Positions 12,774 to 48,749 of a DNA stretch of 64,000 bases are shown piece after piece. The DNA comes from an uncultured Acidobacteriota bacterium (lineage in GTDB: Bacteria; Acidobacteriota; Vicinamibacteria; Marinacidobacterales; SMYC01), in NCBI GenBank assembly GCA_963815675.1, contig CAWFHP010000020.1:143430-207429 (forward strand). The letters run 5' to 3'. The position numbers and the translations under genes were made by a program. The notes under the pieces are model-generated. The model was not told where the DNA came from. It was given only the letters and a program-made list of their open reading frames with translations, and searched no databases. Position 1 is the first letter of the stretch. Each line of letters begins with the position of its first letter.

Positions 12774-12808
12774 CGAAGGGAGTCGTCCTCAGGGGCTCAG
12801 AACGCCGC

Positions 12809-29606: not shown

Positions 29607-29933
29607 AAGAGGGCCCAGAGGCTTCGATGTTCCATGGGTTTACGGGCTCGGCGCGTAACCGCGACAACGATTAGGATATGTCAGAAGTGATTGCCGTTCC
29701 AAATGTTTCCGTGGGACAATATGAGGTTGGGGGGATAGGTCATCGGCTATCGCCGCGGGTTCGCTCTCCCGTGACCGACTCCGACCCTTTTGGTAAACTG
29801 GATTAGCGTGCCCAATCGAGTCGTCTCGTTCGCTGAGCTCGGCAAAACGTTGGCCAACTGACGGTAAACATCGCGAAACGTCAGGCCAGAATCTGGCCCG
29901 GGTTGCCGGTGCGGCTAGTGTGGAAAAGCTTCG

Positions 29934-32292
29934 ATGTCTGAGACTCCGTTGAAAACCTTAGGCAAATATCAGATCAAGAGAGAGCTCGGCAAAGGAGCCA
30001 TGGGTGTCGTCTACCTCGGCTTCGACCCTGGACTCGAGCGTGAGGTCGCGCTGAAGGTGATGGCGAGCGCCATCGTCTCGGACAGCGAGCTCAAGGAGCG
30101 CTTCGAGCGCGAAGCGAAATCGGTGGCGAGACTCCAGCACCCGAACATCGTCACCGTCTACGACCTCGGCTACGACGAGCAGGGAGCTCCCTTCATCGCG
30201 ATGGAGTATCTGAAGGGGCAGGATCTCGAGAATCGCATTCGGCGCGATCCGTTGACCTTCCGGGAGAAGCTCGACGTCGTCGCCCAGACCTGCCGCGGGC
30301 TCGCGCACGCGCACAAGAACGGCATCGTCCATCGCGACGTCAAGCCGGCGAACGTCTTCATCAGCGACAGCGGTGAGGCGAAGATCATGGACTTCGGCGT
30401 CGCCCGCTGGAAGGACGCTTCTCACACCCAAACGGGCGCCGTCCTCGGTACCGCCGACTACATGTCGCCGGAACAGATTCGCGGCCAGAAGGATTCTCGA
30501 CGGGCGATCCGATATTTTCAGCGTCGGTGTCATCCTCTATCGGCTCTTGACCAACAAGAAGCCGTTTGCCGGAGAGAACATTCAATCGGTCTTCTTCAAA
30601 ATCCTGAACCAGGAGTCGCCGGAGCTCGTTCTCCCCGAAGGCAGCGAGATGCCCGAGCTCCAGGCGATTGTCGACAAGGCCCTTTCCAAGAGCCTCGATG
30701 AGCGCTACGCGACCGCCGAAGATTTGGCGGAAGACATCAAGGACTTGATGAGCCTCTACCGGGACACGCTCAACGAGGACACCGTCTTTGACACGCTCTT
30801 CGATCCCTCGACGGTTCCCGAGATGGACCATGGATTGGACGGAAGCGGACGGCGACGCACGACGACGACCGGTCGGGTGCTCGGCACGTCGGGCTCGAGA
30901 GCCGGGGCCGGGCTCTCTCGGACCCATCGGCCGGGGACCGCCTTTCCTTCGACCACCCCCGGTCGCACCGCGTCGGGCCGCTCCGTGGTCCAGCGCACCG
31001 TCGCCGGACGCACGGTGGCGGGGCCGACCCGGATGATGCCGAGAGCGCAGATGGGTGGCACTTCCGTCTCCGCCTCTTCGGTAGGGATCCCCATCCAGGA
31101 GGCGGGCGGCGCTCTCAAGTACGTCGTCGCGGTGGTGCTGCTTCTCGGCCTCGGCGGGGGAGTCTACTGGTTCACCCAGCTCCGGAACCGCCCCGACGTC
31201 AAAGCGGGGACGGACATCGTGCAGACCGCGGGGACGCCCGCACCCACCATCGAGGAGCGTCTGGCCAAGGTGCAAAGCGCTCTCGATCAGGGCTATCTCA
31301 CCGCGGCCTCCAATGACGTGGAGCAGATCCTGCTCGCGGATCCACAGAATGCTCAGGCGCTCGAGCTGAAAGCTCGGATCGAGCAGGCGCAACGTCAGGC
31401 TCAGACGAACAACACGCAAACGACTCACGCGCAAACGGTCCCCACGACGACCGCGCCGATTCAACCCAAGGGACCGTCGAAGAGCGAGGAGGCCTCGCAG
31501 CTCGCCGTCCAGGCTTCCGTCGCGATGGGAAACGGCAGGCTCGACGAGGCGGACAATCTCATTCGTCAGGGCCGCCAGCTCGACCCGGCCAGTGCCGTAT
31601 GGCAGCAGCTCAGCCAGCAGATGGACCGCGTGCGCAAGGACGCCGCGCAGGCGGAGGCGATGCGCCAACGACAGTCGGTCATCGACGGTTTCGTGAGTCA
31701 GGCAGCGCAGGCGGTGAAGAACCGGGACTACGAGGGTGCCATCGCCGCCTACGACAAGGCGCTCGAACAGGATCCGACCAACGTTCAACTTCTCACCGGG
31801 AAGAACAACGTCCTCGTCGCGATGGAGCAGCAGAAAGCGGCCGCCTCGGTCCGGGCGCTCCAGATTAGCGAGACCGCCACCGAGTACCTGTCGCCGGGAA
31901 GTGCCAACGAGGGACCCAAGGGATTCGACACCGGGGGAGTCGAGGTCCACCAGGCCACCAAGGCGCCCGAGAATCCCGGCGAGCTCATCGTGCAAATCCA
32001 GCCCGAAACGGTGCAGCCCGGCGACCCGTACCTGCTGCGCGTACGGGTCCACAATCAGGGAAACAAACCGATCGGGGTCAAGACCATCGAGCTGGTATCG
32101 ACCTACGGCCCGAAGACCACAGGGAAGGGCCAGCAGCTGACGCCTCTGGTGCAGCGCGTCAATCCGCGAGACACCAGCGTCATCTGGGAGACGAGAGGTA
32201 CCTGGACGGAGGCTCAGAACCAGGGGAGCATCGAGGCGATCGTGACGCTCATCGGAGACGCGAAGCTGAGGAAGACGATTCGATGGCAGTGA
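29934..32292 (+). pseudogene. membrane Ser/Thr protein kinase (Hanks type) with periplasmic helical region and C-terminal Ig-like domain; frameshifted near 30494
   Basis: ORF 29934..30701 carries GKGAMGVVY, ALKV, HRDVKPANVF, DFGVA and DYMSPEQIRGQK. After deleting one T of GATTC it continues DLDGRSDIFSVGVILYRLL... in the frame of ORF 30373..32292. A TM helix follows (YVVAVVLLLGLGGGVYWF), then a C-terminal CARDB-like segment (PGDPYLLRVRVHNQGNKPI). The span is 3n+1 nt. Confidence 0.85.
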
Positions 32293-32797
32293 TTACGTCT
32301 TTCTACTCCTCGCCGCCTTCGCCCTGCCCGTCCCCGTCTTCTCCCGGCCGACCGCATCCGAAGAGCCCACGATCGATCATCAGCCCGTCGAGTGCTCCGT
32401 TCCCGGGAAGAACACGCGCATCTGCGCGTATGTCCTCGACGACGGCGAGGTGAAACGGGTCCGGGTCTATTTCCGTGCCGACAAGCAGGCGGCCTACTAC
32501 TGGAGCGACATGGCCTTCGACGGTATCCAATTCTGCGCCACCCTTCCGGTGGCGAAGAAGGACGTTTCTCAAATCGAGTACTACATCTGGGCGGTGGACG
32601 ACGAGTTCCAGTCGATCCGCACCCGGAGCTATCGCGTTTCTCTCGAGCCGAAATCGCCCTGCGCCTATCCCGTCGTCGATGACGACCCCGAACGAGTCTC
32701 GAAGCTCGTCGTGCACGCCACCGCGGAAAAGCAGGGCAAATCGCTCGAGGAGTTCGAAGAGCAAGGGGTCGTCGAGTTCGTTGCCGCGAAGAAATAG
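32283..32797 (+). pseudogene. small secreted protein of unknown function (domain shared with the protein at 43626..45326); start region disturbed
   Basis: The frame holding ORF 32450..32797 is open from 32270. It encodes a signal-peptide-like VFLLLAAFALPVPVFS upstream of the listed GTG, but has no in-frame start. The ATG at 32283 and GTG at 32289 (the latter in a GTGA overlap with the kinase stop) are out of frame by 2 nt. Deleting ta at 32294-32295 (gatTAc) gives MAVIVFLLLAAFALPVPVFSRPTASEEP... Confidence 0.5.
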
Positions 32798-32812: not shown

Positions 32813-33511
32813 GTGACCGTGGTGGACCCGTCACGTTCTCGCGCGCGCCTCACCGTTCTCATTCCGGCGAAGAACGAAGAGGCGACCATCGCCGAGGTGG
32901 TCCAGGGCGCGTTCCGTCACTCCGCCGACGTCCTCGTCGTCGACGGGAGCTCGAAAGACGAGACCGCGGCACGCGCCGCTGCCGCCGGTGCGCGCGTCTG
33001 CCGGGACGAGGGCAAGGGCAAGGGGCGCGCCATCCGGGAGGCCCTACCGCAGCTCAAGGGTGAGGTGACGGTCCTGATGGACGCCGACGGATCGCACGAT
33101 CCCGAGGACATTCCGAAGCTCATCGCCCCGATCTTCGCCGACGAAGCGGACCATGTTTCGGGCTCGCGGCTTCTCGGAGGCTCGAGCGAGCTCCACGGCG
33201 GCTTCGACGAGTGGGCTCGTCTTGCCGGGAGCTCCTTCATCACCGCCTGCATCAACAAACGCTACGGGGTGCGCCTCTCCGACAGTCAGAACGGCTTTCG
33301 CGCCATCCGAACGGAGCTGCTGAGGTCTCTCCCGCTCCGCTCGAAGCACACCACCATCGAGCAGGAGATGATCGTGAAGACCCTTCGCTCGAAGCACAGG
33401 CTCGCGGAGGTGCCCACGCACGAGTACCCGCGACGAGCCGGTGTCTCGCACATCTCGGTTTGGCGCGACGCCCCGAGCTACGTCGTCTCGCTCATCGAGC
33501 TGATGATGTAA
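32813..33511 (+). CDS. family 2 glycosyltransferase (polyprenyl-phosphate sugar synthase-like: DPM1/ArnC/Ppm1 type)
   Basis: 232-aa ORF. LTVLIPAKNEEATI...LVVDGSSKDET...VLMDADGSHDPEDIPKLI (DxD)...SGSR...QNGFRA fits short soluble GT2 enzymes that load sugars on polyprenyl phosphate. Confidence 0.7.
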   Translation: MTVVDPSRSRARLTVLIPAKNEEATIAEVVQGAFRHSADVLVVDGSSKDETAARAAAAGARVCRDEGKGKGRAIREALPQLKGEVTVLMDADGSHDPEDIPKLIAPIFADEADHVSGSRLLGGSSELHGGFDEWARLAGSSFITACINKRYGVRLSDSQNGFRAIRTELLRSLPLRSKHTTIEQEMIVKTLRSKHRLAEVPTHEYPRRAGVSHISVWRDAPSYVVSLIELMM

Positions 33512-33542
33512 ATACGTGTAAGAAGAGAGATGTGGAGATAAG

Positions 33543-33603
33543 AGGGGATAGGGGATCAAGGAATGGATCCTCGTTCTCCTCCCCTCGTCTCCTCCTATCC
33601 CCT
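33543..33603. other. purine-rich/pyrimidine-rich inverted repeat (possible terminator or regulatory hairpin) in the GT2-otsB spacer
   Basis: aggggatagg (33543-33552) pairs with cctatcccct (33594-33603). There is an inner ggatc...gatcc hairpin. A G/A-rich left half faces a C/T-rich right half. Confidence 0.35.
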
Positions 33604-33670
33604 TATCCCCCTCGTATTGCGAGCGGAGCTTCTGCCTCTGAGGTTCGGATCCCCCGCGTGATTTGTTAGC

Positions 33671-34420
33671 ATGATGAGAGTGCCGGATTTTCGGTCCGAT
33701 TGGGCCTTGTTTCTCGACGTCGATGGAACCCTCCTCGCAATCGTGGACGATCCCGACGCCGTCGAGCCCGAGCCCGCGGTCCTGGAAGCGCTCGCGGCCA
33801 TCGAGCGGGACAACGGTGGAGCGATCGCTCTGGTGAGTGGACGATCGATCGCGCAGCTCGATCGCATCTTCGCGCCGCTGCGTCTTCCAGCAGCCGGTCT
33901 TCACGGTTACGAGAGACGGAATCGAAACGGTCGGACGATGCGCTCCGAGATCGACCCCGGGGCGCTCGAGCCGGTCCGGGCACGCTTCGAGCGATTCGTC
34001 GCAGAGCATTCCGGGAGTCTCCTGGAGGACAAGAACCTGTCGCTCGCGCTTCACTACCGCCGCGCGCCCGAAGCCGCGGGGGATGCCGAGGCGCTGGGGC
34101 GCGAGCTCGCGACCGAGCTTCCCCGCGATTTTCGCATTCAGCCGGGCAAGATGGTGCTCGAAGTCAAGCCGGGTGGCGGTACGAAGGGAACCGCGATCGC
34201 GGCGTTCATGGCCGAGCCTCCGTTTCGAGGAAGGGTCCCGGTCTTTCTCGGAGACGATGCCACCGATGAGGACGGCTTTCGCTGGGTCAACGAGCGCGGC
34301 GGTTACTCGATCAAAGTGGGGCCGGGGGCGACGGAAGCGGGGGCCCGTCTCGAGCACGTCGGGGCGGTGAAGAGCTGGCTACTAAGATACCGGGACTTTC
34401 TCGAGGAAGTGCGAACTTGA
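33671..34420 (+). CDS. otsB: trehalose-6-phosphate phosphatase
   Basis: 249-aa ORF with HAD motifs FLDVDGTL, SGRS and GDDATDEDGF. It has the OtsB-like KNLSLALHYR and VLEVKPGGGTKG. Confidence 0.85.
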   Translation: MMRVPDFRSDWALFLDVDGTLLAIVDDPDAVEPEPAVLEALAAIERDNGGAIALVSGRSIAQLDRIFAPLRLPAAGLHGYERRNRNGRTMRSEIDPGALEPVRARFERFVAEHSGSLLEDKNLSLALHYRRAPEAAGDAEALGRELATELPRDFRIQPGKMVLEVKPGGGTKGTAIAAFMAEPPFRGRVPVFLGDDATDEDGFRWVNERGGYSIKVGPGATEAGARLEHVGAVKSWLLRYRDFLEEVRT

Positions 34421-36204
34421 TGCAGACCCTCGACCTCGCCCTCATCGGCAACTCCAGCTTCAGCGCCCTCGTCGACGGCGAGACCAATGTCGTCTGGTCC
34501 TGCTTTCCCCGCTTCGACAGCGACCCGGTTTTCGACATGCTCCTGCGGGGCTTGCGGGAGCCCGAAGACGGGATCTACCGGGTGGAGCTCTTCGAGCACT
34601 CTCACTCCGAGCAGGAGTATCTTCCCAATACGGCGGTTTTGAGGACGCTACTCTCCGACTCTCACGGGGGAGCGGTCGAGGTCATCGACTTCGCGCCTCG
34701 GTTCAAGCAATTCGGCCGTACCTTCCGCCCGCTCACCTTCGTGAGGCTCGTGCGTCCCGTCTCCGGCAGTCCCCGAATCCGAATCCGCCTCCGTCCGACG
34801 AGCGCCGCCGGCCGCGTCCAGCCGGTGGTGACTCACGGAAGCAACCATGTTCGTTACGTGCTGCCTCACGTGACGCTGCGCGTCACGACGGACGCGTCGA
34901 TCACGACTCTGCTCGACGACACGCCCCTCATCCTCGAACGTCCGCTCACGTTGATCCTCGGACCCGACGAGACGCTCCAGAGCGGGGTCGCCGAGACCGG
35001 CCGGTACTTCCTTCAGGAGACCGTCTCCTACTGGCACGAGTGGGTGCGCTATCTCGGGATTCCCTTCGAATGGCAGGATGCGGTGATCCGCGCCGCAATC
35101 ACCCTCAAGCTGAACTCCTACGACGATACCGGAGCCATCGTCGCCGCGATGACGACGTCGATTCCCGAGGCACCCGGTACCGTCCGAAACTGGGACTATC
35201 GCTACTGCTGGTTGCGCGACGCTCAGTTCGTCGTCGGAGCCCTGAGCCGCCTGGGGGTGACCAAGACGATGGAGAGCTATCTCAGCTTCATCATCAACGT
35301 CGCCGCCGGGAGCGTGGACGGCCAGCTCCAGCCGGTCTACGGCATCAACGGGCGCACTCGACTCGAGGAGAATATCGTGGAGGGACTCGCCGGGTACCGC
35401 GGCATGGGCCCCGTCCGTTTCGGAAACCAGGCCTACCAGCAAGTCCAGAACGACGTCTATGGCGCCGCCGTGCTCGCCGCCACCCACATGTTCTTCGATC
35501 GCCGGCTGGCTACACCGGGAGACGAGAGCCAGTATCGGCGCCTCGAGCACCTGGGCGATCTCGCCGTTGAAGTGTTCGCCGAGCCCGATGCCGGCCCGTG
35601 GGAGCTCCGCGGAGCTCGGCACGTCCATACCTACTCGGCGGTGATGTGCTGGGCGGCCTGCGATCGGCTCTCGAAGATCGGAAGCCGACTCGGTCTCACG
35701 GAGCGAGCGCAGCATTGGAGCCGCCTTGCCGAAGGGATGCGAACTACGATCTCCGAGAGCGGTTTCAACTCCGATCTCGGAAGCTTCACCGGGAGCTTCG
35801 GAGGAACCGATCTCGACGCGGCCCTGCTTCTGCTCCCGAGCCTCGGGTTCCTCCCGCCCTCGGATCCGCGGTTCGCGGGAACATTGAAGGCGGCCGAGCA
35901 GTACCTCTTGAAGGGCGATTTCCTATTCCGTTACACGAACGCCGACGACTTCGGCTACCCCGAGACGGCTTTTCTCGTCTGCAGCTTCTGGTACGTCGAC
36001 GCGCTCCACGCGGTCGGTCGCGTCGAAGAGGCTCGGGAGCTCTTCGAGAAGCTTCTCGCCCGCCGCAATCGGCACGGCCTTCTCTCCGAAGACATCCATC
36101 CCGAGACCGGGGAGCTCTGGGGGAATTTCCCGCAGACTTACAGTATGGTGGGAATGATCAATTCGGCCAGAAAGCTGAGCAAGCCCTGGGAGCTGGGATA
36201 TTGA
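34420..36204 (+). CDS. glycoside hydrolase family 15 protein (glucoamylase/trehalase-like)
   Basis: About 594 aa. NWDYRYCWLRDAQF, FGNQAYQQVQNDVYG and PWELRG are GH15 catalytic-domain signatures. The ATG at 34420 overlaps the otsB stop (TGATG). Confidence 0.8.
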   Translation: MQTLDLALIGNSSFSALVDGETNVVWSCFPRFDSDPVFDMLLRGLREPEDGIYRVELFEHSHSEQEYLPNTAVLRTLLSDSHGGAVEVIDFAPRFKQFGRTFRPLTFVRLVRPVSGSPRIRIRLRPTSAAGRVQPVVTHGSNHVRYVLPHVTLRVTTDASITTLLDDTPLILERPLTLILGPDETLQSGVAETGRYFLQETVSYWHEWVRYLGIPFEWQDAVIRAAITLKLNSYDDTGAIVAAMTTSIPEAPGTVRNWDYRYCWLRDAQFVVGALSRLGVTKTMESYLSFIINVAAGSVDGQLQPVYGINGRTRLEENIVEGLAGYRGMGPVRFGNQAYQQVQNDVYGAAVLAATHMFFDRRLATPGDESQYRRLEHLGDLAVEVFAEPDAGPWELRGARHVHTYSAVMCWAACDRLSKIGSRLGLTERAQHWSRLAEGMRTTISESGFNSDLGSFTGSFGGTDLDAALLLLPSLGFLPPSDPRFAGTLKAAEQYLLKGDFLFRYTNADDFGYPETAFLVCSFWYVDALHAVGRVEEARELFEKLLARRNRHGLLSEDIHPETGELWGNFPQTYSMVGMINSARKLSKPWELGY

Positions 36205-37652
36205 GTCGCCTCGTCGTCGTTTCGAATCGCGTGCCGCTGCCGCGCGGCTCGAAGCCCCCCGAGGGCGGTCTCGCGACCGCTGTCCTCGCCGCGCTCGAGT
36301 CCCGGGGAGGACTCTGGTACGGCTGGAGCGGGGCTACGACGAACGAGACGAATCCGCCCATCGGCCGGTCGCGGCTGGGGGCCGTCGAGTTCGCCACGAT
36401 TCCGCTCGCGAAGAACGACTACGACGACTATTACAAGGGGTTTTCCAACCGCGTCTTGTGGCCGTTGTTCCACATGCGGCTCGACCGCATGGAGTTCCGG
36501 CGCGGATTCGAAGAGGGATATCGGCGGGTGAACCAGCTGTTCGCGCGGCGCCTCCTTCCTCTACTGCAGGAAGGTGACCTGATTCGGGTCCACGACTATC
36601 ACCTCATCCCCCTTGGTCGCGAGCTCCGGCGCGCGGGTTGGGGCGGCGCCATAGGCTTCTTCCTCCACGTTCCCTTTCCTCCTTTCGACGTGCTGCGGGC
36701 CCTGCCACGCCATCGAACCCTCCTCAGCGAGCTCCTCTCGTACGACCGCGCCGGGTTCCAGACCGACCTGGACGTTCTGAACTTCCGGGCGAGCGTACGT
36801 CACGAGCTTCCCGCGGCGCGGCTCACGGCCTCGGGAATCGAGATGGATGGTCACACCACGACCGCGAATGTCTTCCCCATCAGCGTGGACGTGGACGAGG
36901 TGGCACGGGAGGCGCGCAAGGCGCGAGGCTCCGTCCAGGGCCGGCGGCTCATCTCGAGCTTGAACGGCCGGCGGCTCATGGTGGGGGTCGATCGGCTCGA
37001 TTACAGCAAGGGACTCACCGAGCGTTTCCGAGCCTTCGAGCGGATGCTGGAGCGCCACCCGCCCTATCGCGGAAGGGTGGTTTTGCTGCAGGTGGCCCAG
37101 CCGTCGAGAGGCGATGTACCCGAGTACCAGACGATGCGCAAAGCGCTCGACGGAGTGGCGGGAGAGATCAACGGTCGTTTCTCCGACTACGACTGGATGC
37201 CGATTCGATACTTGAACAAGGGATTCGCCCGGTCGACCATCCTCGGGTTTCTTTCGATTGCCGAGGTCGCTCTCGTGACGCCGCTTCGGGACGGGATGAA
37301 CCTCGTTGCCAAAGAGTTCGTGGCTTCGCAGAACCCGGAGAGTCCGGGCGTGCTCGTGCTGTCCGAGCTCGCGGGCGCGGCGCGCGAGCTCGATGCCGCG
37401 GTCTTCGTGAACCCTCACGACGTCGACGACATCGCCGACGGAATCGATCGCGCTCTATCGATGTCGCTTCCCGAGCGGAAGGAGCGATGGCGGGCGATGA
37501 TGGCGGTCCTGCGGCGCAACGACATCCATCGATGGAGGCGGCGCTTCGTGGAATCTCTCGAGTCGCGACAGGCCTCGTCCTCGCCGCCCTCGGCGGAGCG
37601 GCGGCTCCATCGCGAACGGACCCGTCTTCGGGGCCTCGAAACGGAGACTTGA
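36201..37652 (+). CDS. otsA: alpha,alpha-trehalose-phosphate synthase (GT20)
   Basis: This is the real part of ORF 35598..37652, starting at the TTG at 36201, which overlaps the GH15 stop. LVVVSNRVP...GGLATAVL...LWYGWSG...VHDYHL...FFLHVPFP...GVDRLDYSKG...PLRDGMNLVAKEF...LSELAGAA. Confidence 0.85.
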   Translation: MSRLVVVSNRVPLPRGSKPPEGGLATAVLAALESRGGLWYGWSGATTNETNPPIGRSRLGAVEFATIPLAKNDYDDYYKGFSNRVLWPLFHMRLDRMEFRRGFEEGYRRVNQLFARRLLPLLQEGDLIRVHDYHLIPLGRELRRAGWGGAIGFFLHVPFPPFDVLRALPRHRTLLSELLSYDRAGFQTDLDVLNFRASVRHELPAARLTASGIEMDGHTTTANVFPISVDVDEVAREARKARGSVQGRRLISSLNGRRLMVGVDRLDYSKGLTERFRAFERMLERHPPYRGRVVLLQVAQPSRGDVPEYQTMRKALDGVAGEINGRFSDYDWMPIRYLNKGFARSTILGFLSIAEVALVTPLRDGMNLVAKEFVASQNPESPGVLVLSELAGAARELDAAVFVNPHDVDDIADGIDRALSMSLPERKERWRAMMAVLRRNDIHRWRRRFVESLESRQASSSPPSAERRLHRERTRLRGLETET

Positions 37653-37664
37653 GTCGGTGCTCCA

Positions 37665-38504
37665 ATGGCGATGGTGACGCAAGGAATCGCGCGAGCGCGA
37701 GCGCGAGCGCGCCGCGGGCGCGGCCCCGGCACCGTCTATCGGCGGCTCAAGTCGATTCAATACCTGGCGACCCGGGACTGGAACGCCGTCCTGGAGTTCA
37801 CCTTCGCGTCCAGACCAGGCGCGGCGTCGGTCGCCGAGCGCGTCGCCCTTCTGCGGCGCTTCGTCGCGGTGACGAACGGGGTTCGGGGCTACCACACGCT
37901 CGGGGAGATCCTCACGGTCGCGGGCGCCATCCTCGCGCGATCGGACGTTCCGGGCAGAGGACCGATCGTGCTCGAAGCGGGATGCGGATACGGCGCCTCG
38001 ACCGCCAAGCTCTCCCTCGCCGTTCGACTCGCGTCCGGACGTCTCATCGCGTGCGATTCTTTTCGCGGCATGCCCGAAAACGACGAGGAGCACCTGCTCA
38101 TGGACGGCCGACGCACGCGTTTTCGTGCCGGGGCATTCCGCGGGACACTCGCTTCCGTCGAGCGCACCGTCCGCGAATGGGGCGCTTTCGAGGTGTGCCG
38201 GTTCGAGAAGGGCGCGTTCGAGGACACTCTCCCGCGGCTCGAGCCATCCGCGTCGCTCGACGTCGTCGTGCTCGACGTGGATCTCGCGAGCTCGACCCGC
38301 ACCTGCGTCCGGGAGCTCTGGGCCCGGCTTCGCCCGGGCGGGGTCTTGTTCTCCCTCGACGGGCAGCTCCGCGCGACCCACGAGATCCTCGGCGACCCGG
38401 CGTTCTGGCGGCACGAGGTGGGAGCGCCCCCGCCGCAAATCGAAGGCCTGGGAGCGCGAAAGCTCCTCACGCTGCGCAAGTCCGGGGCCGGGGCCCGCGA
38501 TTGA
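37665..38504 (+). CDS. class I SAM-dependent methyltransferase (TylF/MycF macrocin-O-methyltransferase-like)
   Basis: 279-aa ORF. The SAM-binding motif is VLEAGCGYGAST. DSFRGMPE and VLDVDL are reminiscent of the TylF family. Confidence 0.6.
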   Translation: MAMVTQGIARARARARRGRGPGTVYRRLKSIQYLATRDWNAVLEFTFASRPGAASVAERVALLRRFVAVTNGVRGYHTLGEILTVAGAILARSDVPGRGPIVLEAGCGYGASTAKLSLAVRLASGRLIACDSFRGMPENDEEHLLMDGRRTRFRAGAFRGTLASVERTVREWGAFEVCRFEKGAFEDTLPRLEPSASLDVVVLDVDLASSTRTCVRELWARLRPGGVLFSLDGQLRATHEILGDPAFWRHEVGAPPPQIEGLGARKLLTLRKSGAGARD

Positions 38505-38559
38505 GAGCGCAGAGCCGCCCGCCCTATACTGTCTACGGGATCCGGAACGGAGAGGTCGA

Positions 38560-39999
38560 GTGAAACTACTGCTGCTGAATCCACCCACCGTTGAAGGCAA
38601 GGGCTTCATCCGCGAAGGGCGATGCACCCAGGAGGGCGGGGTGTGGACGACCCTCTGGCCTCCCATCTCCCTCGCCACCATCGGCGCCGTTCTCGAGCGC
38701 GACGGGCACGACGTCGCGGCCAAAGACGCGTCCGCTACCGGCTATCCCAGAATGAAGCTCCTCGCCGACATCGCGGAAGCGCCTCCCGACGCCGTCATCT
38801 GGTCCACGGGCACGCCGTCGATCGTGGACGATCTCGCGCTCGCAACCGAGATCAAGAGGGTGGCGCCGGCGACGAGAACCGCCGTATTCGGGACGCACGT
38901 GACCGCGCTCGATGAGACTTGCCTCGCCGACACCCCCGCGCTCGACGCCATTTTCCGGAATGAGCCGGAAGCGACGGCGGCGGAGTGGGTTTCGAAGCTT
39001 CGGACTCCCGAGAGGTTCCCGGAGATTCTCGGCTTGAGCTTTCGTGAGCCGCCTGGTGGAAGCGACGGACGTCCGGATGGGACCATCCGACGGAATCCCG
39101 ACCGGCCGTTTCTGACCGACCTCGACGATCTCCCCGCGCCCGCGTGGCACCTCTTCGATCTCGACGCCTATCGGCTGCCGCTCAAGGGCGAGCAGTTTCT
39201 CATGGTGACGCCCCATCGCGGCTGTCCCTATCCCTGCAGCTATTGCACCGCCCAGACGTATTACGGCGCCAAGCTCAGACGCCGCTCGGTCGAGCGCGTC
39301 ATCGACGAGATCCGCCGAAATGTGGAGGTCCACGGTGTCAAGGAGCTGTTCTTCTGGTCGGATACCTTCACCCTCGACAAGCGCTACGTGATGGCCCTCT
39401 GCGAGGCGATGATACCCCTCGGCGTTTCCTGGGCGTCGAACAGCCGTGTCGACACTATCGACGCCGAGCTCGCGAGCGCGATGCGGCGCGCGGGCTGTTG
39501 GATGATTCCGTTCGGAATCGAGAGCGGAAGCCAGGAGCTCCTCGACGCCGTCGGAAAAGGCGCCACCGTCGACGAGGCCGAGCGGGCGGTCGCGGTGGTG
39601 AAGGCTGCCGGCATCAAGGTCGCCGGGCACTTCGTTCTCGGACTTCCCGGTGAGACGAAGGAGAGCCTCGACGAGACGCTCGACCTCGCCGCCCGTCTTC
39701 CCCTCGACTTCGAGCAGTTCTACTGTGCCGTACCGTTTCCCGGCTCGCGGCTCTACGACGAGGCGCGGGAGAAGGGCTGGCTCCACGAGAATGACTTTTC
39801 CCGCTACCGTCAGGACGAGGCGATCCTCGAGCTTCCGGGCTTGACGCCGGACGAGGTGGCCCGCTACCGGCAGGCCGCGTACCGGAGGTTCTACACCCGG
39901 CCGAAAGTGGCGATGAGTGCTCTCGGCCTCCTGTCTCCGAGAAATCTCTGGCGAGCGACATCCGCCTTCAAACGCTTCATCGGCTGGACTCACGCCTGA
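38560..39999 (+). CDS. B12-binding-domain radical SAM protein (class B)
   Basis: This is the real part of ORF 38125..39999, from the GTG at 38560, which is preceded by ggagagg. The N-terminal part is a Rossmann-like B12 domain (KLLLLNPP...LATIGAVLERDGHDV). The radical SAM cluster is GCPYPCSYCTAQ. Confidence 0.8.
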   Translation: MKLLLLNPPTVEGKGFIREGRCTQEGGVWTTLWPPISLATIGAVLERDGHDVAAKDASATGYPRMKLLADIAEAPPDAVIWSTGTPSIVDDLALATEIKRVAPATRTAVFGTHVTALDETCLADTPALDAIFRNEPEATAAEWVSKLRTPERFPEILGLSFREPPGGSDGRPDGTIRRNPDRPFLTDLDDLPAPAWHLFDLDAYRLPLKGEQFLMVTPHRGCPYPCSYCTAQTYYGAKLRRRSVERVIDEIRRNVEVHGVKELFFWSDTFTLDKRYVMALCEAMIPLGVSWASNSRVDTIDAELASAMRRAGCWMIPFGIESGSQELLDAVGKGATVDEAERAVAVVKAAGIKVAGHFVLGLPGETKESLDETLDLAARLPLDFEQFYCAVPFPGSRLYDEAREKGWLHENDFSRYRQDEAILELPGLTPDEVARYRQAAYRRFYTRPKVAMSALGLLSPRNLWRATSAFKRFIGWTHA

Positions 40000-40020
40000 C
40001 GCCTGGCGCGTCCGATTGAG

Positions 40021-41727
40021 ATGATCCTCGGTCTCTGGGATGGTCATGACGCGGGCGCGGCACTCGTCGACGAGTCGGAGAAGCGCATCGTCTGCGCCGT
40101 CAATGAGGAGCGCCTCACCCGGCGCAAGCTCGAAGTGGGATTTCCCTGCCGTTCCATCGAGGTGGCGCTTCGCGAGGCCGGTCTCGCGCCGAGCGCCGTC
40201 ACGGAGATTGCCGTCTCGACGTACGATCCCGCCAAGACGCTGACCCGGTGGTTTCCTTCGCTGAAGGAGAAGTACTACCTCCTTCGGCGCCGGAAGGTGA
40301 GGCCACGCCGCCTGGATTCCATGCGCCGTGCCGTCAAGTACGAGCTCACGACCTGGAGGCCCAACCGGCTCTCGCGGAGCTTGAGCGAGGCCGCGCTTTC
40401 TCGGGAGCTCGGAAAACTGGGCCTCGGGCGCGCCAAGCTCCGTTGGGTGCGGCATCACATGGCGCACGCCGCGACCGCGGCCTTCACATCCGGGTACGAC
40501 TCCGCCCTCGTCGTCACCCTCGACGGAGTGGGGGACGGGCTCTCGGGAACGATCTCGACGCTGGGAAACGGCAAGCTCGAGATTGTCTCCACCCTCGGTG
40601 CGCGGGACTCGTTCGGGATCTTCTACGAGCTCGTCACTCGTCTCCTCAACATGAGGGAGCTCGAGGACGAGGGCAAGGTCATGGCCCTCGCCTCTTACGG
40701 GTACCCGCCGCCGGACGGGCGCAACCCGTTGATGGATTCGTTCGAGGTCGACGGGGTCGGCGTGCGCTGCCGGCTATCGCCCTCGCGTCTCGAAGCGTTT
40801 CTCGCCGCCGAGCTCGCGCTCGTCCCCTCGGAGCAGTTCGCTTTTTTCACCCAGCAAGTCGTCGAGACCAAGGCCGTCGAGCTCGTGCGCAACGCGTTGC
40901 AACGGACGGGATTGAGGCGTGTCGCTTATGCCGGGGGTGTCGCCAGCAACATTCAGGTGAACCGGAAGCTATGGGACCTCCCTGAGTGCGAGGAGATCTT
41001 CGTGTTTCCACACATGGGAGACGGGGGGCTCGCGCTCGGAGCGGCGCTCGCCCGCGCCGCCGAGATCACCGGGGGCGCTCACTTCGCGCTCGGTGACCTC
41101 CGCCTCGGTCCGACGATCGCGGCCGGCGAAGCGGAGTCCGCCCTTCGCGCCTCGGGACTCCCGTTCCAGAAGATCCCCTGCGCCGCGAAGGAAACGGCGC
41201 GCCGCCTCAAAGAAGGGCAAATCGTCTTCTGGTTCCAGGGCCGGATGGAGTTCGGTCCGCGGGCGCTGGGCGGACGGAGCATTCTCGGCCGTCCCGATCG
41301 GGTGGAGCTCCGAGACCGGCTGAACTTGAAGCTCAAGCGACGCGTGTGGTACCAGCCGTTCTGCCCGTCACTGCTCGACGAGGAGGGGGAGCGTTTGCTG
41401 GAAGGCGGCGAGGTTCCGAACCGCTACATGACGATGGCCTACCGGGTTCGTCCCGAGGCGATGGAGTCGCTTCGTGGCGTCGTCGGCCGCGACGGGACGT
41501 GCCGGCCCCAGATGGTCGACGAGAGCTACGGCAACTACCATCGGCTGCTCGTCGAGATGAGAGACGCGATTGGCGTGGGAGCGGTCTTGAACACCAGCTT
41601 CAACCAGCACGGAGAGCCTATAGTGGCCACGCCCGTCGAGGCCATCGATTGTTTCGTGCGCTCGGGAGCCGACGCTCTGACGATGGAGGATTTTCTCGTG
41701 GAGAGACCGGAGGGAGCCGCGCGTTGA
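40021..41727 (+). CDS. carbamoyltransferase (NodU/CmcH family)
   Basis: 568-aa ORF. ILGLWDGHDAGAALV...NEERLTRRK...HHMAHAATA...TLDGVGDG...GGVASN...PHMGDGGLALGAA...RMEFGPRALGGRS...NTSFN. Confidence 0.85.
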   Translation: MILGLWDGHDAGAALVDESEKRIVCAVNEERLTRRKLEVGFPCRSIEVALREAGLAPSAVTEIAVSTYDPAKTLTRWFPSLKEKYYLLRRRKVRPRRLDSMRRAVKYELTTWRPNRLSRSLSEAALSRELGKLGLGRAKLRWVRHHMAHAATAAFTSGYDSALVVTLDGVGDGLSGTISTLGNGKLEIVSTLGARDSFGIFYELVTRLLNMRELEDEGKVMALASYGYPPPDGRNPLMDSFEVDGVGVRCRLSPSRLEAFLAAELALVPSEQFAFFTQQVVETKAVELVRNALQRTGLRRVAYAGGVASNIQVNRKLWDLPECEEIFVFPHMGDGGLALGAALARAAEITGGAHFALGDLRLGPTIAAGEAESALRASGLPFQKIPCAAKETARRLKEGQIVFWFQGRMEFGPRALGGRSILGRPDRVELRDRLNLKLKRRVWYQPFCPSLLDEEGERLLEGGEVPNRYMTMAYRVRPEAMESLRGVVGRDGTCRPQMVDESYGNYHRLLVEMRDAIGVGAVLNTSFNQHGEPIVATPVEAIDCFVRSGADALTMEDFLVERPEGAAR

Positions 41728-43442
41728 GCCGACGAGTTTTCTGGTCATCCTCGATCCTGTTTCTCGCCGCCGGTGGCGCGCTCGCGCTCTGGCTCACAGG
41801 GAAGCATCCGGGAGAGCTCCGGGACACGCTGGAGTGGCTGTCGCCCCGGAGCCTCGATTCCACGTTCCTGCTCCTCGTATCCGGCGCCGTCGCCAGCTTT
41901 TCGGCAATCCGAGGCTCATTTCCCGGCAGGAGCCTTCTGCTTCCGCTCGCCGTCGGCCTCGTTGCTTTCGTGATGGTGGCGACGATCCCGCCCCGCACCC
42001 ACCGGATCTACTACGACGAGGACATCTACGAGAACGTCGCCCAGAACATCCTCTGGGTGGGACGGGCGCAGATGTGCAACGAAGGCATCCTGGAGCAGGG
42101 GACGTTTCGGTGCGACAACTTCGAGTACAACAAAGAGCCGAACGGGTTTCCCTTCCTTCTCTCGCTCGCGTTTCGATTCGGAGGCGTACGGGAGAGCACG
42201 GCCCACGCGATGAACCACGCCGTGTTCGCCCTGGGGGCGGTGGCGGTCTTCTGGATCGCCGCGATGCTCTTCGACGGCGCGTGGGCTGGCGCCGGAGCCG
42301 CCCTCGTCTATGTCTTGATTCCCCAGAATCTGCTCTGGGGGGCGACGGTCGCGGCGGAGCCGGCCGCCGCCTCGTTCGCGGCCCTCGGTCTCGGTGCCTG
42401 GATTCTATTCTGCAGGCAACCCGCGCCCTCGACGGCCGTCTTTGGATCGGCGGGGCTCGCCTTCGCTTGCCAGTTCCGTGCCGAGTCCGGTCTGATTCTC
42501 CTGCCTGCCGCGGTAGTGACGCTCCTGCTCGCGCGGGGGATTTTGAGAACGCGCGAGCTCTGGTGGGCAGCCGTCCTCACGCTCGTGCTCCTGACTCCGC
42601 ACTTCGCTCATATGGCGGCGGTTCGCGGCGAGCGGTGGGGAAGCGGGGACGGCGACAAGTTCTCGCTCTCCGCGGCGAAAGAGAACTGGAGACCCAACGT
42701 CGACTACCTCGCGAAAGGCGAAGACTTCCCGACTCTCTTCACCGCGCTCGCGCTCCTCGGTCTGTTCGACTCGCGGCGTTACCGGGAGGGGGCGACGACG
42801 CTCGTCTGGTTCCTCGCGTTTTTCGGGATCTTCATCCCCTTCTATGCCGGGAGCTACCGGTACGGCGCCGACGTACGGTTCTCTCTGGTGAGCGCGGCGC
42901 CGCTCGCGGTCCTGGCCGGAGCGGGACTCGCGTGGCTCTCGACGAAGCTCCATCGGATGCGGCCTGAGCGCCTGTCCCTGCGCTTCGCTCCCTATGCCGT
43001 CGCGATCTATGCTTTCACGCTCTATTTGCCTCTCACCCGCGCGGTGGGAAGGGAGTCATGGGCCTCTCGTGCAGATCATGCGGCCGCGTTACGGATGGTG
43101 GCAGAAATACCCGAGGACGCAATCGTGCTCACCCACAACCCGGGAATGCTCCAGGTGATGGGAAGAAGCGCGGCACAAGTCTCGATCGCGACCACCGCGC
43201 CGCAGGTGGTGGATACGTACTTCCACCGTTTCGCCGGCGGCGTCTATTTTCATTACAACTTCTGGTGCAACATTCCCGACCCGCTTCAGAACGAGTTCTG
43301 CACCAACGTGTTGGCCCGTTATGGAACCCGGGTGGTCATGGAAGAGAGTGCCGGATTCTACCGCTACGTGCTCTATCGCCTCCTTCCGAAGAGTGCTCCA
43401 CCCGAGCCGCCGACGCCTCCGCTTGCGCGCAGCCAACCCTAG
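41724..43442 (+). CDS. polytopic membrane glycosyltransferase, GT-C fold (GT39/GT83 PMT/ArnT-like)
   Basis: This is the real part of ORF 41346..43442, from the TTG at 41724, which overlaps the preceding stop. It has about 11-12 hydrophobic helices. The first extracytoplasmic loop has an acidic motif (RIYYDEDIYENVAQNI) like the DE/DxD motif of PMT/ArnT enzymes. There is a soluble C-terminal domain. Confidence 0.6.
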   Translation: MSRRVFWSSSILFLAAGGALALWLTGKHPGELRDTLEWLSPRSLDSTFLLLVSGAVASFSAIRGSFPGRSLLLPLAVGLVAFVMVATIPPRTHRIYYDEDIYENVAQNILWVGRAQMCNEGILEQGTFRCDNFEYNKEPNGFPFLLSLAFRFGGVRESTAHAMNHAVFALGAVAVFWIAAMLFDGAWAGAGAALVYVLIPQNLLWGATVAAEPAAASFAALGLGAWILFCRQPAPSTAVFGSAGLAFACQFRAESGLILLPAAVVTLLLARGILRTRELWWAAVLTLVLLTPHFAHMAAVRGERWGSGDGDKFSLSAAKENWRPNVDYLAKGEDFPTLFTALALLGLFDSRRYREGATTLVWFLAFFGIFIPFYAGSYRYGADVRFSLVSAAPLAVLAGAGLAWLSTKLHRMRPERLSLRFAPYAVAIYAFTLYLPLTRAVGRESWASRADHAAALRMVAEIPEDAIVLTHNPGMLQVMGRSAAQVSIATTAPQVVDTYFHRFAGGVYFHYNFWCNIPDPLQNEFCTNVLARYGTRVVMEESAGFYRYVLYRLLPKSAPPEPPTPPLARSQP

Positions 43443-43625: not shown

Positions 43626-45326
43626 ATGATGGGGATTCGACGCGCCGCGAAGCTGGGTGTACTGTTTGGGGTCTCGATGTCCTGGTGCAGCTGGGGTTTC
43701 GGGGGAACGGGACAGGGGGCGGCACAAACATCCGACGCGTCCGAGATCGCTCTCGACCCTGCTATCGAATGCTGGTACGACTCGGCGTTTCCGATACTCG
43801 GGGCCCAGCTGACGCCTCCGGAGGAGGTCGTTCACTCGCGGCTCTACTTCCGTTGCAGCCTCTACCCCGATTACTACTTCGTCGACCTGGCGGAAGAGAA
43901 CGGGACGTTTCGCGGCGTGGCGCCCCAGGCGGATTCGCAGTGTCCCCGCGTACATTATTACGTCGAGATGCTCACCCGGGACTTCACCTCGACGCGCACG
44001 GAAGAACGAATCGCCGACGTCACGAGCGCGAGCGAATGCCGGAGGCGTTATCCGGCCGCGGGTTTGTTTCCCGGCGATGATCCCAAGATCTTCCTCGGCT
44101 CGACCATCAACGGCCCCTCGATGGCGCCCGGTTTCAAGAGCATAGGCGTTGCGGGCTTCATCTCCGCCACCGGGGCTACCGTGCCCGCCGCCGAGGGAGG
44201 GATCTCGACGGGTCTCGTCGCCGGCCTCGCGGCCGGTGGTGCTGCCGTCGGGGTCGGAGTCCTGGCATCCGGTGGCGGGAACACGACGACGACGACGGCG
44301 CCGGCGATTCCGTCTCCGCCCCCCCCGACGACGACGATCCCCCCGACGACGTCGGTGCCCGCGGTCCAGTCGGTCAAAGCCTGTTTTCGTTTGGACCCTC
44401 CCGATGGCGTGATCGAGCAGAACGAGGCCTTGCGAATCGACGGCCGCTGCTCCGAAGGGGGCGACGCCCTTCAGTTCCATTACGACCTGGGCGACGGCCG
44501 GATCAAAGAGGGGCAGGCGTTCGTTACCGCCATCTGGCCGACGCCCGGAATCTACACGCTTACCCTCACGGTGAGCCGCGCTTCGAGTTCGCTGCGGTCG
44601 GGCAACGGGCTGGATGAAGACAGTTATTCCGCGGAGATCACCGTGCAGGAGCCACCCCCCCCACCCGAGCCCGTCGTCGCGGATTTCATCGCACGGCCGA
44701 AGGGCGACACCTGCATCGTGAGCTTCGACGCCTCTCCGTCCTCGGGCCCGATTGACCGCTATCAGTGGGCTCTCGACGTCAACAACGACCTGGGAGCCGG
44801 AGTGATCCGGCTCGACGGTCTGTCGGTGAGCTACGACTGGAAGCAAGCTTGCTTCGATGACTCCTTCAACGGCTCGTTCGTCGCCCGACTCGCGGTGTCC
44901 GGCCCCGCGGGCGCGAGCGACAGCATCGAGAAGAAGGTCGTCCTCTTCATCCCCTTCAGGACGAGCGACGCCAAGACGGTGAACGGCCGCGTCGAAGGAG
45001 CGGTCTCGACCGCGATGCTCGATTCGAAACGAGCGCGGGGGCAGGTGCTGCTGGGCGAGGGGCAGAGCTACCCGGTGACGTCGGAGACTCCCGTCCTGCT
45101 TCGCTACTCCGCCAAGAGCGGTCGGAACGAGCTCCAGGCGGTGATGGCGAGCGATACGCCCACTTTATGGAGATTCGACTTCAGCGGTACTCGCGGTTTC
45201 GTCGTGGGAAGCCTTCGCACCCTCGCGGGACAGGAGGTGAGCCGCGACGCGTACTCCGTCGTCCTGCGCTTCGCGGGCCAGCCGGGCGAGCGCGCGCAGA
45301 TCGAGTACCGAATGGAGCCTCAGTAG
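43626..45326 (+). CDS. secreted multidomain protein: unknown N-terminal domain, Gly/Ala-rich hydrophobic stretch, Thr/Pro linker, two PKD/Ig-like domains, C-terminal beta-rich domain
   Basis: ORF 43542..45326; the likely start is the ATG at 43626 (MMGIRRAAKLGVLFGVSMSWCSW signal peptide). The linker is GGGNTTTTTAPAIPSPPPPTTTIPPTTSVP. PKD-like segments: FHYDLGDGRIKEG...GIYTLTLTV and CIVSFDASPSSGPIDRYQWAL. Confidence 0.7.
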   Translation: MMGIRRAAKLGVLFGVSMSWCSWGFGGTGQGAAQTSDASEIALDPAIECWYDSAFPILGAQLTPPEEVVHSRLYFRCSLYPDYYFVDLAEENGTFRGVAPQADSQCPRVHYYVEMLTRDFTSTRTEERIADVTSASECRRRYPAAGLFPGDDPKIFLGSTINGPSMAPGFKSIGVAGFISATGATVPAAEGGISTGLVAGLAAGGAAVGVGVLASGGGNTTTTTAPAIPSPPPPTTTIPPTTSVPAVQSVKACFRLDPPDGVIEQNEALRIDGRCSEGGDALQFHYDLGDGRIKEGQAFVTAIWPTPGIYTLTLTVSRASSSLRSGNGLDEDSYSAEITVQEPPPPPEPVVADFIARPKGDTCIVSFDASPSSGPIDRYQWALDVNNDLGAGVIRLDGLSVSYDWKQACFDDSFNGSFVARLAVSGPAGASDSIEKKVVLFIPFRTSDAKTVNGRVEGAVSTAMLDSKRARGQVLLGEGQSYPVTSETPVLLRYSAKSGRNELQAVMASDTPTLWRFDFSGTRGFVVGSLRTLAGQEVSRDAYSVVLRFAGQPGERAQIEYRMEPQ

Positions 45327-45365: not shown

Positions 45366-45556
45366 AAAGGCATACCGGGAATGTCGCGGCCGAGCACTTC
45401 GGCGCTTCCGGATCGCGAGCCCTCATCCTGCCAGCGGCTCGTGCGCGGCGCTTTGGCGGTCTCCGCGCCTTTACGTCCAATTCCGACCCGTTCCGTCGTT
45501 CTGTCCGCCCGCCAGTGGAGCCGCACCGCCGCGCGCCGGATGCTAAAATAGTCTTC

Positions 45557-48694: not shown

Positions 48695-48749
48695 GCCGCG
48701 GCTGGCCGGGGACGCTTCGACGGGCTCGGGCCGAAACGTGCTCTCTGCG

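Follow-up and report, generated by a model that had tools for sequence, protein, structure and literature searches.

Does a run of eight genes, packed closely on one strand, encode one pathway or two unrelated ones? The question is raised by a stretch of 64,000 nucleotides from an uncultured Acidobacteriota bacterium (GenBank assembly GCA_963815675.1, contig CAWFHP010000020.1), referred to here as the window, to which all coordinates of the run and its neighbours belong. In this DNA, genes for trehalose synthesis lie among genes for what a preliminary description took to be a polyprenyl-phosphate/GT-C glycosylation and sugar-decoration toolkit, and that description proposed that the two are joined. 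Our analysis indicates that the run is probably composite, in that it consists of a trehalose unit together with a conserved module, predicted to act in envelope glycosylation, whose likeliest acceptors are Thr-rich secreted proteins.

A conserved four-gene module in diderm bacteria

The eight open reading frames (ORFs) of the run occupy positions 32813-43442 of the + strand and, as had been described, each has its domains above the Pfam gathering score. Four of them make up what we refer to as the module. The first encodes a family 2 glycosyltransferase (GT2) of the polyprenyl-phosphate-sugar synthase type (32813-33511, +; 232 residues; Glycos_transf_2, 78.7 bits). The second encodes a radical S-adenosylmethionine (SAM) enzyme with a B12-binding domain (38560-39999, +; GTG start; Radical_SAM, 91.7 bits; B12-binding, 41 bits). 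These are followed by the genes for a TobZ/NodU/CmcH-type O-carbamoyltransferase (40021-41727, +; Carbam_trans_N, 116.5 bits; Carbam_trans_C, 187.1 bits) and for a membrane glycosyltransferase of the GT-C fold (41724-43442, +; TTG start; PMT_2, 28.3 bits against a cutoff of 26.1). Between the GT2 and radical SAM genes lie otsB, a gene for a hydrolase of family GH15, otsA and a methyltransferase gene. The three overlapping start/stop junctions noted previously are each formed by the four nucleotides TTGA, at otsB/GH15, GH15/otsA and carbamoyltransferase/GT-C; the intergenic gaps measure 159 bp (GT2-otsB), 12 bp (otsA-methyltransferase), 55 bp (methyltransferase-radical SAM) and 21 bp (radical SAM-carbamoyltransferase). 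Note that although the eight genes are co-directional, this is not special to them, as the + strand run extends from a kinase gene at 29934 to the end of a MacB-like gene at 50688. The GC content of the window is 63-67%, and the nearest named homologues of the GT-C enzyme and of the methyltransferase come from metagenome-assembled genomes (MAGs) of Vicinamibacteria.

We scanned for the GT-C family with one genome per species; 218 species genomes were positive, and 80 loci, all of them from MAGs, were fetched. Fifty-five of the loci have 5.5 kb or more of DNA upstream, and in these the gene content was counted by means of a phmmer map. Every one of the 55 has a carbamoyltransferase gene upstream of its GT-C gene. 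A GT2 gene is present in 42 of the 55 and a radical SAM gene was detected in 42 (25 of the B12 type and 17 of the SPASM type), with no locus having a radical SAM gene in the absence of a GT2 gene; a 43rd locus, L022, has a GT2 gene together with a B12-type radical SAM gene in fragments. The B12-type enzyme is encoded between the GT2 and the carbamoyltransferase, whereas the SPASM-type enzyme, of about 340 residues, is encoded upstream of the GT2. Two unrelated classes of radical SAM enzyme appear to fill the same functional slot. Carriers of the GT-C family fall into at least six named phyla, with representatives in Acidobacteriota, Thermodesulfobacteriota, Ignavibacteriales/Chlorobiota, Nitrospirota, Magnetococcales, Planctomycetota and Spirochaetales.

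Individual loci illustrate the pattern. Locus L001, whose GT-C enzyme is 73% identical to that of the window, has the same eight genes. L002 (59%) and L003 (50%) have genes for the kinase, a small protein, the GT2, the radical SAM enzyme, the carbamoyltransferase and the GT-C enzyme, in that order, with the GT2 and radical SAM genes uninterrupted, and L004 (38%) has the four module genes. In L005, from an Ignavibacteriales MAG (38%), a different radical SAM gene is followed by those for the GT2, the carbamoyltransferase and the GT-C enzyme, and in L006 (Thermodesulfobacteriota) a class II aldolase gene is followed by those for the carbamoyltransferase and the GT-C enzyme. The start/stop overlap between the last two genes is found in the window and in relatives.

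Neighbourhood conservation had been put forward previously as a check, and by this check the GT2, radical SAM, carbamoyltransferase and GT-C genes travel together across many phyla. The four-gene core is a real, widespread and uncharacterised module of diderm bacteria; in the full-text literature that we searched, no system was found in which a carbamoyltransferase is paired with a GT-C enzyme and a radical SAM enzyme with a GT2. The module is best described as a putative lipid-carrier/GT-C glycosylation system with carbamoyl and radical SAM tailoring of the donor, the chemistry being predicted at every step.

Two variants of the locus were seen along the way. A class II aldolase gene lies directly 5' of the carbamoyltransferase/GT-C pair in seven Thermodesulfobacteriota loci (L006, L020, L023, L024, L032, L056 and L059), none of which has a gene for a GT2 or a radical SAM enzyme within 10 kb; with 263 bits, the aldolase just fails to reach the cutoff for L-fuculose-phosphate aldolase (264). 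A pair of GT-C paralogues, arranged as carbamoyltransferase, GT-C, about 1 kb, GT2, GT-C, occurs in L043, L046, L051, L055, L062, L063, L075 and L083, which are planctomycete-type loci and one from Spirochaetales; a GtrA-family gene is nearby in L043, L046, L051, L055 and L075.

Predicted donor synthesis, the GT-C enzyme and candidate acceptors

The GT2 has its best NCBIfam matches to AglJ (148 bits), dolichyl-P-hexose transferase, PpgS and ArnC, all of them under the respective cutoffs, and its full-length phmmer matches include DPMS (5mlz, 8e-11) and ArnC (1e-7). It has no transmembrane segment, and the same is true of the short PpgS and dolichyl-P-hexose transferase profiles. Because a transmembrane segment is lacking and the scores lie far below the cutoffs, we treat the GT2 as a putative user of polyprenyl phosphate. 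(A single-sequence AlphaFold model of the protein, with a pLDDT of 32.6, was unusable.) That a lipid-carrier GT2 and a GT-C enzyme act here as two parts of one system, as had been suggested previously, gains support from the conservation of the module across phyla.

The radical SAM enzyme has the domain set of class B, with a B12-binding domain above its cutoff (32.1 bits) and the CxxxCxxC motif in the form CPYPCSYC. Its nearest relative of solved structure is AprD4 (9e-36), a sugar diol dehydratase and not a methylase; AprD4 works without cobalamin. Should the two classes of radical SAM enzyme found at the module be isofunctional, a methylation would be a less likely reaction for them than an epimerisation, oxidation or dehydration. 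Among named families the enzyme is closest, over its full length, to HpnJ of the hopanoid pathway; there the GT2 HpnI glycosylates a lipid, on which HpnJ, a radical SAM enzyme with a B12-binding domain, then acts. A hopanoid assignment was rejected because the match scores 252.2 bits against a cutoff of 577.6. Moreover, a GT-C enzyme and a carbamoyltransferase have no place in the HpnI/HpnJ/HpnK route, and there are no hopanoid genes in the annotated neighbourhoods.

The carbamoyltransferase is TobZ-like across both of its domains (1e-68) and also matches GdmN and NovN; a Kae1-like N-terminal domain (residues 2-343) and a YrdC-like C-terminal domain (393-562) are both present. Enzymes of the TobZ type use ATP and carbamoyl phosphate, and the module enzyme should therefore act in the cytoplasm.

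The AlphaFold model of the GT-C enzyme is of high quality (pLDDT 93.6, pTM 0.92), and its C-terminal part forms a small alpha/beta domain. Foldseek searches of the PDB with this model ranked ArnT first (E 7e-9, TM-score 0.54-0.57), followed by STT3, ALG12, DPY19, PglB and Aft/Emb. The top 36 matches are GT-C-type membrane transferase folds only, almost all of them GT-C glycosyltransferases, and the structures of protein O-mannosyltransferases (PMTs) rank low (25, 28 and below). At the level of sequence, a profile of 69 family members found nothing among PDB sequences at E<=1, ArnT included, and the enzyme has no NCBIfam match. Because this profile reaches no solved structure, we regard the enzyme as a member of a separate GT-C family. 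That family is distinct and not large, with 230 clusters at 50% identity (E<=1e-30) among 1.84 billion representatives. Its relatives are named GT39-family by NCBI. Within the 69 sequences, D98-E99 in the first outer loop is invariant; PMTs carry a DE motif in loop 1. Of the cysteines, C515 is invariant and C118, C526 and, in a smaller alignment, C130 are nearly so, and their positions in loop 1 and the C-terminal domain would fit an active side that faces away from the cytoplasm.

What, then, might the GT-C enzyme glycosylate? Immediately downstream of its gene, at 43626-45326 (+), is the gene for a secreted PKD-domain protein that contains TTTTTAPAIPSPPPPTTTIPPTTS and has a Thr/Pro-rich linker at 44283-44354, which the preliminary description had singled out as an O-glycosylation-type target. 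All orthologues of this candidate acceptor keep a Thr/Pro-rich linker. Across the wider set of loci, 26 ORFs with Thr-rich tracts were found within 4 kb of the module, in 23 of 83 loci, as compared with 2 in the farther flanks (binomial p=1.6e-5; 482 versus 393 kb scanned), in counts that pool related loci and use the outer flanks of the same loci as the control; both of the far-flank ORFs look spurious. In 222 kb of other DNA the Thr-rich matches were only two module-adjacent PKD proteins. Eight of the 16 GT-C clusters formed at 50% identity show the association, and its recurrence in half of these deep lineages gives the linker proposal independent support. The Thr-rich neighbours themselves are heterogeneous, and include GH10, GH10+CBM60 and GH16+CBM6 enzymes, a protein with a pilin-type N-terminal methylation motif, lipoproteins, a BACON-domain protein and members of unassigned families, with the poly-Thr tract as the sole feature that they have in common. 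In L004, three tandem lipoprotein paralogues (12013-15382 of that locus; lipobox LSC or VSC) with mucin-like Ser/Thr tracts directly follow the GT-C gene. Because Thr-rich secreted proteins are enriched beside the module, we favour protein O-glycosylation, which is the most likely of the acceptor hypotheses and one that we infer from sequence. Precedent exists in streptococci, where GT2/GT-C pairs glycosylate poly-Ser/Thr tracts (PMC11092751).

At L004 the lipoprotein genes are followed by a second PMT_2-type GT-C gene (684 residues) and then by a gene for a PKD protein. Genes for GH10/GH16 enzymes with poly-Thr linkers adjoin the module in L043, L062 and L083.

We tentatively propose, as a possibility that still falls short of being probable, that the module is an undescribed system of protein O-glycosylation, in which an O-carbamoylated, radical-SAM-modified hexose carried on polyprenyl phosphate is delivered to poly-Thr linkers in secreted proteins and proteins of the envelope, such as glycoside hydrolases, pilin-like proteins, lipoproteins and PKD proteins. 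According to the mechanism that we consider probable, the GT2, which is soluble or peripheral, would charge polyprenyl phosphate with a hexose taken from a nucleotide sugar, on the cytoplasmic side of the membrane. The radical SAM enzyme and the carbamoyltransferase would then tailor the lipid-linked sugar in the cytoplasm, in a manner resembling the action of ArnD on the undecaprenyl-phosphate (Und-P)-linked sugar Und-P-Ara4FN. A flippase encoded outside the window would move the lipid-linked donor across the membrane, and the GT-C enzyme would transfer the carbamoylated sugar outside the cytoplasm, with Thr-rich linkers such as that of the downstream PKD protein as the likeliest acceptors. 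What the analysis shows directly is which genes are present, their folds and families, their conservation and order, the lineage-specific position of the trehalose block and the enrichment of Thr-rich neighbours; the nature of the lipid carrier, the identity of the sugar, the order of tailoring, the carbamoylated product and the acceptor are predictions. A donor that is flipped while lipid-linked would be consistent with the GtrA-family genes of five planctomycete-type loci and with the EamA protein of L094, which has a weak ArnE-like match. We know of no reported protein glycan that combines carbamoyl and radical SAM chemistry.

Several observations weigh against this proposal. Within the 64-kb window there is no flippase gene, a phmmer search having found no homologue of GtrA or EamA there. 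The GT2 has no membrane segment, and its family scores all lie far below the equivalog cutoffs. The carbamoyltransferase and GT-C genes stand alone in 13 of the 55 loci, the pooling of related loci bears on the Thr-rich counts, and every carrier found is an uncultured MAG. Finally, the best structural match of the GT-C enzyme is ArnT, which acts on lipid A, and not a PMT.

The last of these points raises the alternative that the module is an ArnC/ArnT-like system, which would attach a carbamoylated sugar to lipid A, the lipopolysaccharide (LPS) core or another envelope glycan rather than to proteins. In keeping with such a role, an LpxD-like gene lies divergently upstream in Vicinamibacteria-type loci, genes for class A penicillin-binding proteins adjoin the module in L004 and L006, and all carriers appear to be diderm. 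The match to ArnT, however, amounts to the modest TM-scores given above, with oligosaccharyl- and mannosyltransferases scoring nearly as high, and neither the family profile (at E<=1) nor NCBIfam links the enzyme to ArnT sequences. Furthermore, conservation with the module extends to no other LPS gene, and this reading would leave the enrichment of Thr-rich proteins unexplained. We therefore think that an envelope glycan is unlikely to be the acceptor, although this alternative fares better than those considered below.

Comparison with known systems places the proposed protein O-glycosylation route among, and apart from, several precedents; the module would operate in the manner of Gtr, Arn and PMT systems, yet it belongs to no NCBIfam equivalog. 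For O-antigens and arabinan, lipid-carrier systems are already known in which auxiliary enzymes remodel the donor (Kelly et al. 2024, PMC11127046). The GtrA/GtrB/Gtr* and pentofuranose systems (PMC11127046) have, as is predicted for the module, a cytoplasmic polyprenyl-phosphate sugar synthase, extracytoplasmic transfer by a GT-C enzyme and possible remodelling of the donor, and GtrA-family genes also occur in some module loci, whereas the window has no flippase gene. GtrB has a transmembrane anchor that the module GT2 does not. Unlike the three-component Gtr systems, moreover, the module has a carbamoyltransferase and a radical SAM enzyme as its auxiliaries and its acceptor is probably a protein, not an O-antigen. 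In the ArnC/ArnD/ArnT system, as is predicted for the module, a GT2 makes an Und-P-sugar that is modified while lipid-linked and then transferred by a GT-C enzyme. The likeness of the module enzyme to ArnT (GT83) is one of fold, however, and does not extend to membership by sequence; the module has a different tailoring chemistry, no ArnA/B genes and no sign of lipid A as its acceptor.

The Ppm1/PMT (GT39) system and the streptococcal GtrB-PgtC2 and PgfS-PgfM1 pairs resemble the module in combining a GT2 with a GT-C enzyme, and they target poly-Ser/Thr tracts beside folded domains of extracytoplasmic proteins (PMC11092751), as is predicted for the module. In contrast to PMTs, the module enzyme has no MIR domain that Pfam could find, and the hosts of the module are diderm bacteria, not Actinobacteria, Firmicutes or eukaryotes. 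Whereas the PMT and streptococcal donors carry plain mannose, glucose or N-acetylgalactosamine, for the module the prediction is a donor with carbamoyl and radical SAM modifications. PgtC2, unlike the module enzyme, is a YfhO-family protein.

Were the proposal correct, lipid-carrier/GT-C glycosylation would gain a new donor chemistry, namely carbamoylation together with a radical SAM step, and the module would be a candidate general route for O-glycosylation of Thr-rich linkers in Acidobacteriota, Planctomycetota, Thermodesulfobacteriota and other poorly studied diderm phyla, where glycosylation of linkers could govern the stability of secreted enzymes. The predicted signature in mass spectrometry is hexose + 43.006 Da on Thr-rich peptides, and the four-gene set is compact enough for heterologous expression.

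The trehalose block and the methyltransferase gene

The genes that separate the GT2 gene from the rest of the module are otsB, for trehalose-6-phosphate phosphatase (33671-34420, +; Trehalose_PPase, 131.7 bits), the gene for a trehalase-like GH15 hydrolase (34417-36204, +; Glyco_hydro_15, 170 bits; TREH_N, 36 bits), otsA, for trehalose-6-phosphate synthase of family GT20 (36201-37652, +; TTG start; Glyco_transf_20, 404.8 bits), and the gene for a TylF/MycF/NovP-type SAM-dependent O-methyltransferase (37665-38504, +; TylF, 46.3 bits). OtsB scores above the equivalog cutoff of TIGR00685 (152 against 68 bits) and OtsA slightly under that of TIGR02400 (547 against 565); together they provide the GT20 synthase and the HAD-IIB trehalose-phosphatase of the OtsA/OtsB pathway. 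The GH15 protein has both the catalytic domain and the trehalase-like N-terminal domain. Because its score against TreH1 (307 bits) is under the equivalog cutoff of 820, we call its specificity for trehalose putative. As had been described, the otsB-GH15-otsA triad belongs to ordinary trehalose metabolism, being an operon for synthesis and turnover.

To what extent do these genes belong with the module? The triad lies within the module in 3 of about 85 loci (the window, L001 and L094), which are from one Vicinamibacteria-like subclade and show two arrangements, and the methyltransferase gene does so in the window and L001 only. In the phmmer map of the 80 fetched loci, ots genes and the methyltransferase gene were seen in L001 alone, and L002, L003, L004, L007-L009 and about 75 further loci are without them. 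A tree of the concatenated radical SAM enzyme, carbamoyltransferase and GT-C enzyme makes the window and L001 sister to L007-L009 with 100% bootstrap support, and in L007-L009 the GT2 gene abuts the radical SAM gene. Since this sister group is ots-free and uninterrupted, the ots-methyltransferase block between the GT2 and radical SAM genes is a derived feature.

The inserted genes also occur apart from the module. About 17 kb away from the module, on the contig that also carries L010, is a free-standing otsB-GH15-otsA triad (L093) in the opposite orientation, and in L095 the triad has an unrelated gene context. On an annotated Sulfitobacter plasmid otsB adjoins a GH15 gene, with a trehalose-6-phosphate synthase gene close by. 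Homologues of the GH15 protein with 60-72% identity are abundant, including in Beta- and Gammaproteobacteria, and one of them is named trehalase. (A metagenome scan with OtsA as the query gave four loci at 49% identity, whose neighbours were uninformative.) Homologues of the methyltransferase with 60-74% identity are encoded by solitary genes elsewhere (L087 and L088). The L087 gene has no module gene within 10 kb; a GT-C homologue, P0038, is probably on the same contig.

These findings bear directly on the idea that trehalose synthesis is functionally joined to the GT2/GT-C toolkit, whether in one operon that makes a trehalose-related glycan or in a stress regulon. The case for it is the recurrence of the triad. 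In L094 (8651-20761 of that locus; GT-C 61% identical) the order is kinase, small protein, otsB, GH15, otsA, radical SAM enzyme, carbamoyltransferase, GT-C enzyme, EamA protein and PKD protein; the triad occupies the usual place of the GT2 gene, and the EamA gene lies between the GT-C and PKD genes. Because L094 branches outside the group formed by the window, L001 and L007-L009, so that the ots-bearing loci form no clade that excludes the ots-free L007-L009, the triad entered this same locus twice, or entered it once and was later lost. Its presence inside the module in two arrangements (window/L001 and L094), and again at about 17 kb from it on the L010 contig, weighs against a composite run; the short gaps on either side of the methyltransferase gene (12 and 55 bp) also favour a link. 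Set against this are the absence of ots genes from about 80 other loci, including the sister clade, the self-contained triads of L093 and L095, the wide occurrence of GH15 homologues in Proteobacteria and of the otsB-GH15 pair on the Sulfitobacter plasmid, and L094 itself, which has ots genes and neither the GT2 nor the methyltransferase gene. In addition, a conserved promoter-like element parts the methyltransferase gene from the radical SAM gene: a sigma-70-like match of the form TTGAGA-18-TATACT at 38501..38530 (+), 5' of the radical SAM gene, of which the window and L001 have exactly the same -10 block, CGCCCTATACTGTCT, despite diverged flanks. Trehalose metabolism is, moreover, cytoplasmic, and no enzyme at the locus ties trehalose to a lipid carrier.

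Because in-module ots genes are restricted to the window, L001 and L094, and the in-module methyltransferase gene to the first two of these, and because both are separate genes in relatives, the trehalose link is unsupported; the neighbourhood survey has already largely refuted it, we consider it quite improbable, and the recurrence of ots genes at this locus does not rescue it at the level of a pathway. It is by chance of gene order, in a single subclade, that the trehalose genes lie here. The second unit of the run is an ordinary otsB-GH15-otsA operon plus a normally solitary methyltransferase gene, and it has no demonstrable role in the module. Thus, of the preliminary interpretation, the domains are correct and the GT2/GT-C logic and the linker target gain support, whereas the trehalose link and the membership of the TylF-like methyltransferase among the tailoring enzymes are not supported. 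As regards annotation, a tidy co-directional run of eight genes can be two unrelated units, and the trehalose genes here should not be taken as members of a glycan pathway.

Three smaller features of the block were noted. Its edges have no flanking direct repeats and no composition break, and no mobile-element signature was found there. In the GT2-otsB gap, at 33529..33607 (+), is an imperfect purine/pyrimidine-rich palindrome of about 75 nt that occurs once in the window and is missing from the 61-bp gap of L001; it was rejected as a terminator, as it has no T-run and its folding energy is not distinct from that of shuffled sequences (z -1.56), and Rfam has no match in the window. A TTGTTAGCAT motif at the 5' end of otsB is common to the window, L001 and L093 and is too short to interpret.

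The methyltransferase also enters the comparison with antibiotic sugars. Noviose (with NovP for O-methylation and NovN for carbamoylation) and unit F of moenomycin draw on the same enzyme families, namely TylF/NovP-type methyltransferases, TobZ/NovN/GdmN-type carbamoyltransferases and radical SAM enzymes, and moenuronamide, in moenomycin, is a carbamoylated C-methyl sugar on a phospholipid. The clusters for such sugars, however, belong to the secondary metabolism of actinomycetes and use Leloir glycosyltransferases, with no GT-C enzyme, and the methyltransferase is not a conserved member of the module. It is a B12 radical SAM methylase and a carbamoyltransferase (MoeK5/MoeM5), the same pair of enzymes as in the window, that tailor the moenomycin sugar. 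Carbamoylated sugars have been described as rare and occur in natural products; in moenomycin, for example, the first sugar, attached to a phospholipid, is 3-O-carbamoyl-4-C-methyl-glucuronamide (PMC13584161). That the lipid-linked sugar is itself the product of the module, as a moenomycin-like phosphoglycolipid or small glycolipid that the GT-C enzyme only elaborates or exports, nevertheless seems barely plausible to us, given that the loci are without the prenyl-phosphoglycerate synthase, further glycosyltransferases or transporter typical of such clusters, that the tightest coupling is that of the carbamoyltransferase with the GT-C transferase, and that the module is a compact, housekeeping-like unit in many unrelated phyla.

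Flanking genes and sequence quality

Upstream of the GT2 gene are a gene for a Ser/Thr protein kinase with a TPR-like periplasmic part (29934..32292, +), which is spread over two frames (29934-30701 and 30373-32292) and is conserved 5' of the module only in the Vicinamibacteria-type clade, and a gene for a small secreted protein without a Pfam family (32283..32797, +), which is 83% identical to L001 574-1170 and has its start codon (ATG, 32283) out of frame relative to its body. The small protein (32330-32794) shares a domain of about 115 residues with the N-terminal part of the PKD protein (43824-44171; 28% identity, tblastn 2e-7), and two paralogous secreted domains, neither of them in a Pfam family, thus stand on either side of the module.

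On the - strand, at 27282-29639, an LpxD-like hexapeptide acyltransferase and MoeA share one stop-free frame. The two are separate in L002 and L094, and the fusion is either an in-frame adjacency or an assembly artefact. Genes for an OEP (TolC-like) protein, an HlyD-like protein, an ABC ATPase and a MacB-like permease lie 3' of the PKD gene (45521-50688) and are syntenic in relatives with 58-73% GT-C identity; they could encode a secretion or efflux system for the neighbouring proteins, or be unrelated.

Four flanking genes are frameshifted when compared to their orthologues: those for the Ser/Thr kinase (near 30496-30509), the small secreted protein (32283-32295), the HlyD-like protein (47261-47319) and the ABC ATPase (49163-49199). 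Each of the four frameshifts is beside a GATTC; as a rough chance rate, about 11% of 40-nt windows have GATTC or GAATC. Such a pattern resembles the systematic errors of long-read basecalling at a methylated motif of the GANTC type more than it does pseudogenisation. All eight genes of the cluster are intact despite 33 GATTC/GAATC sites.

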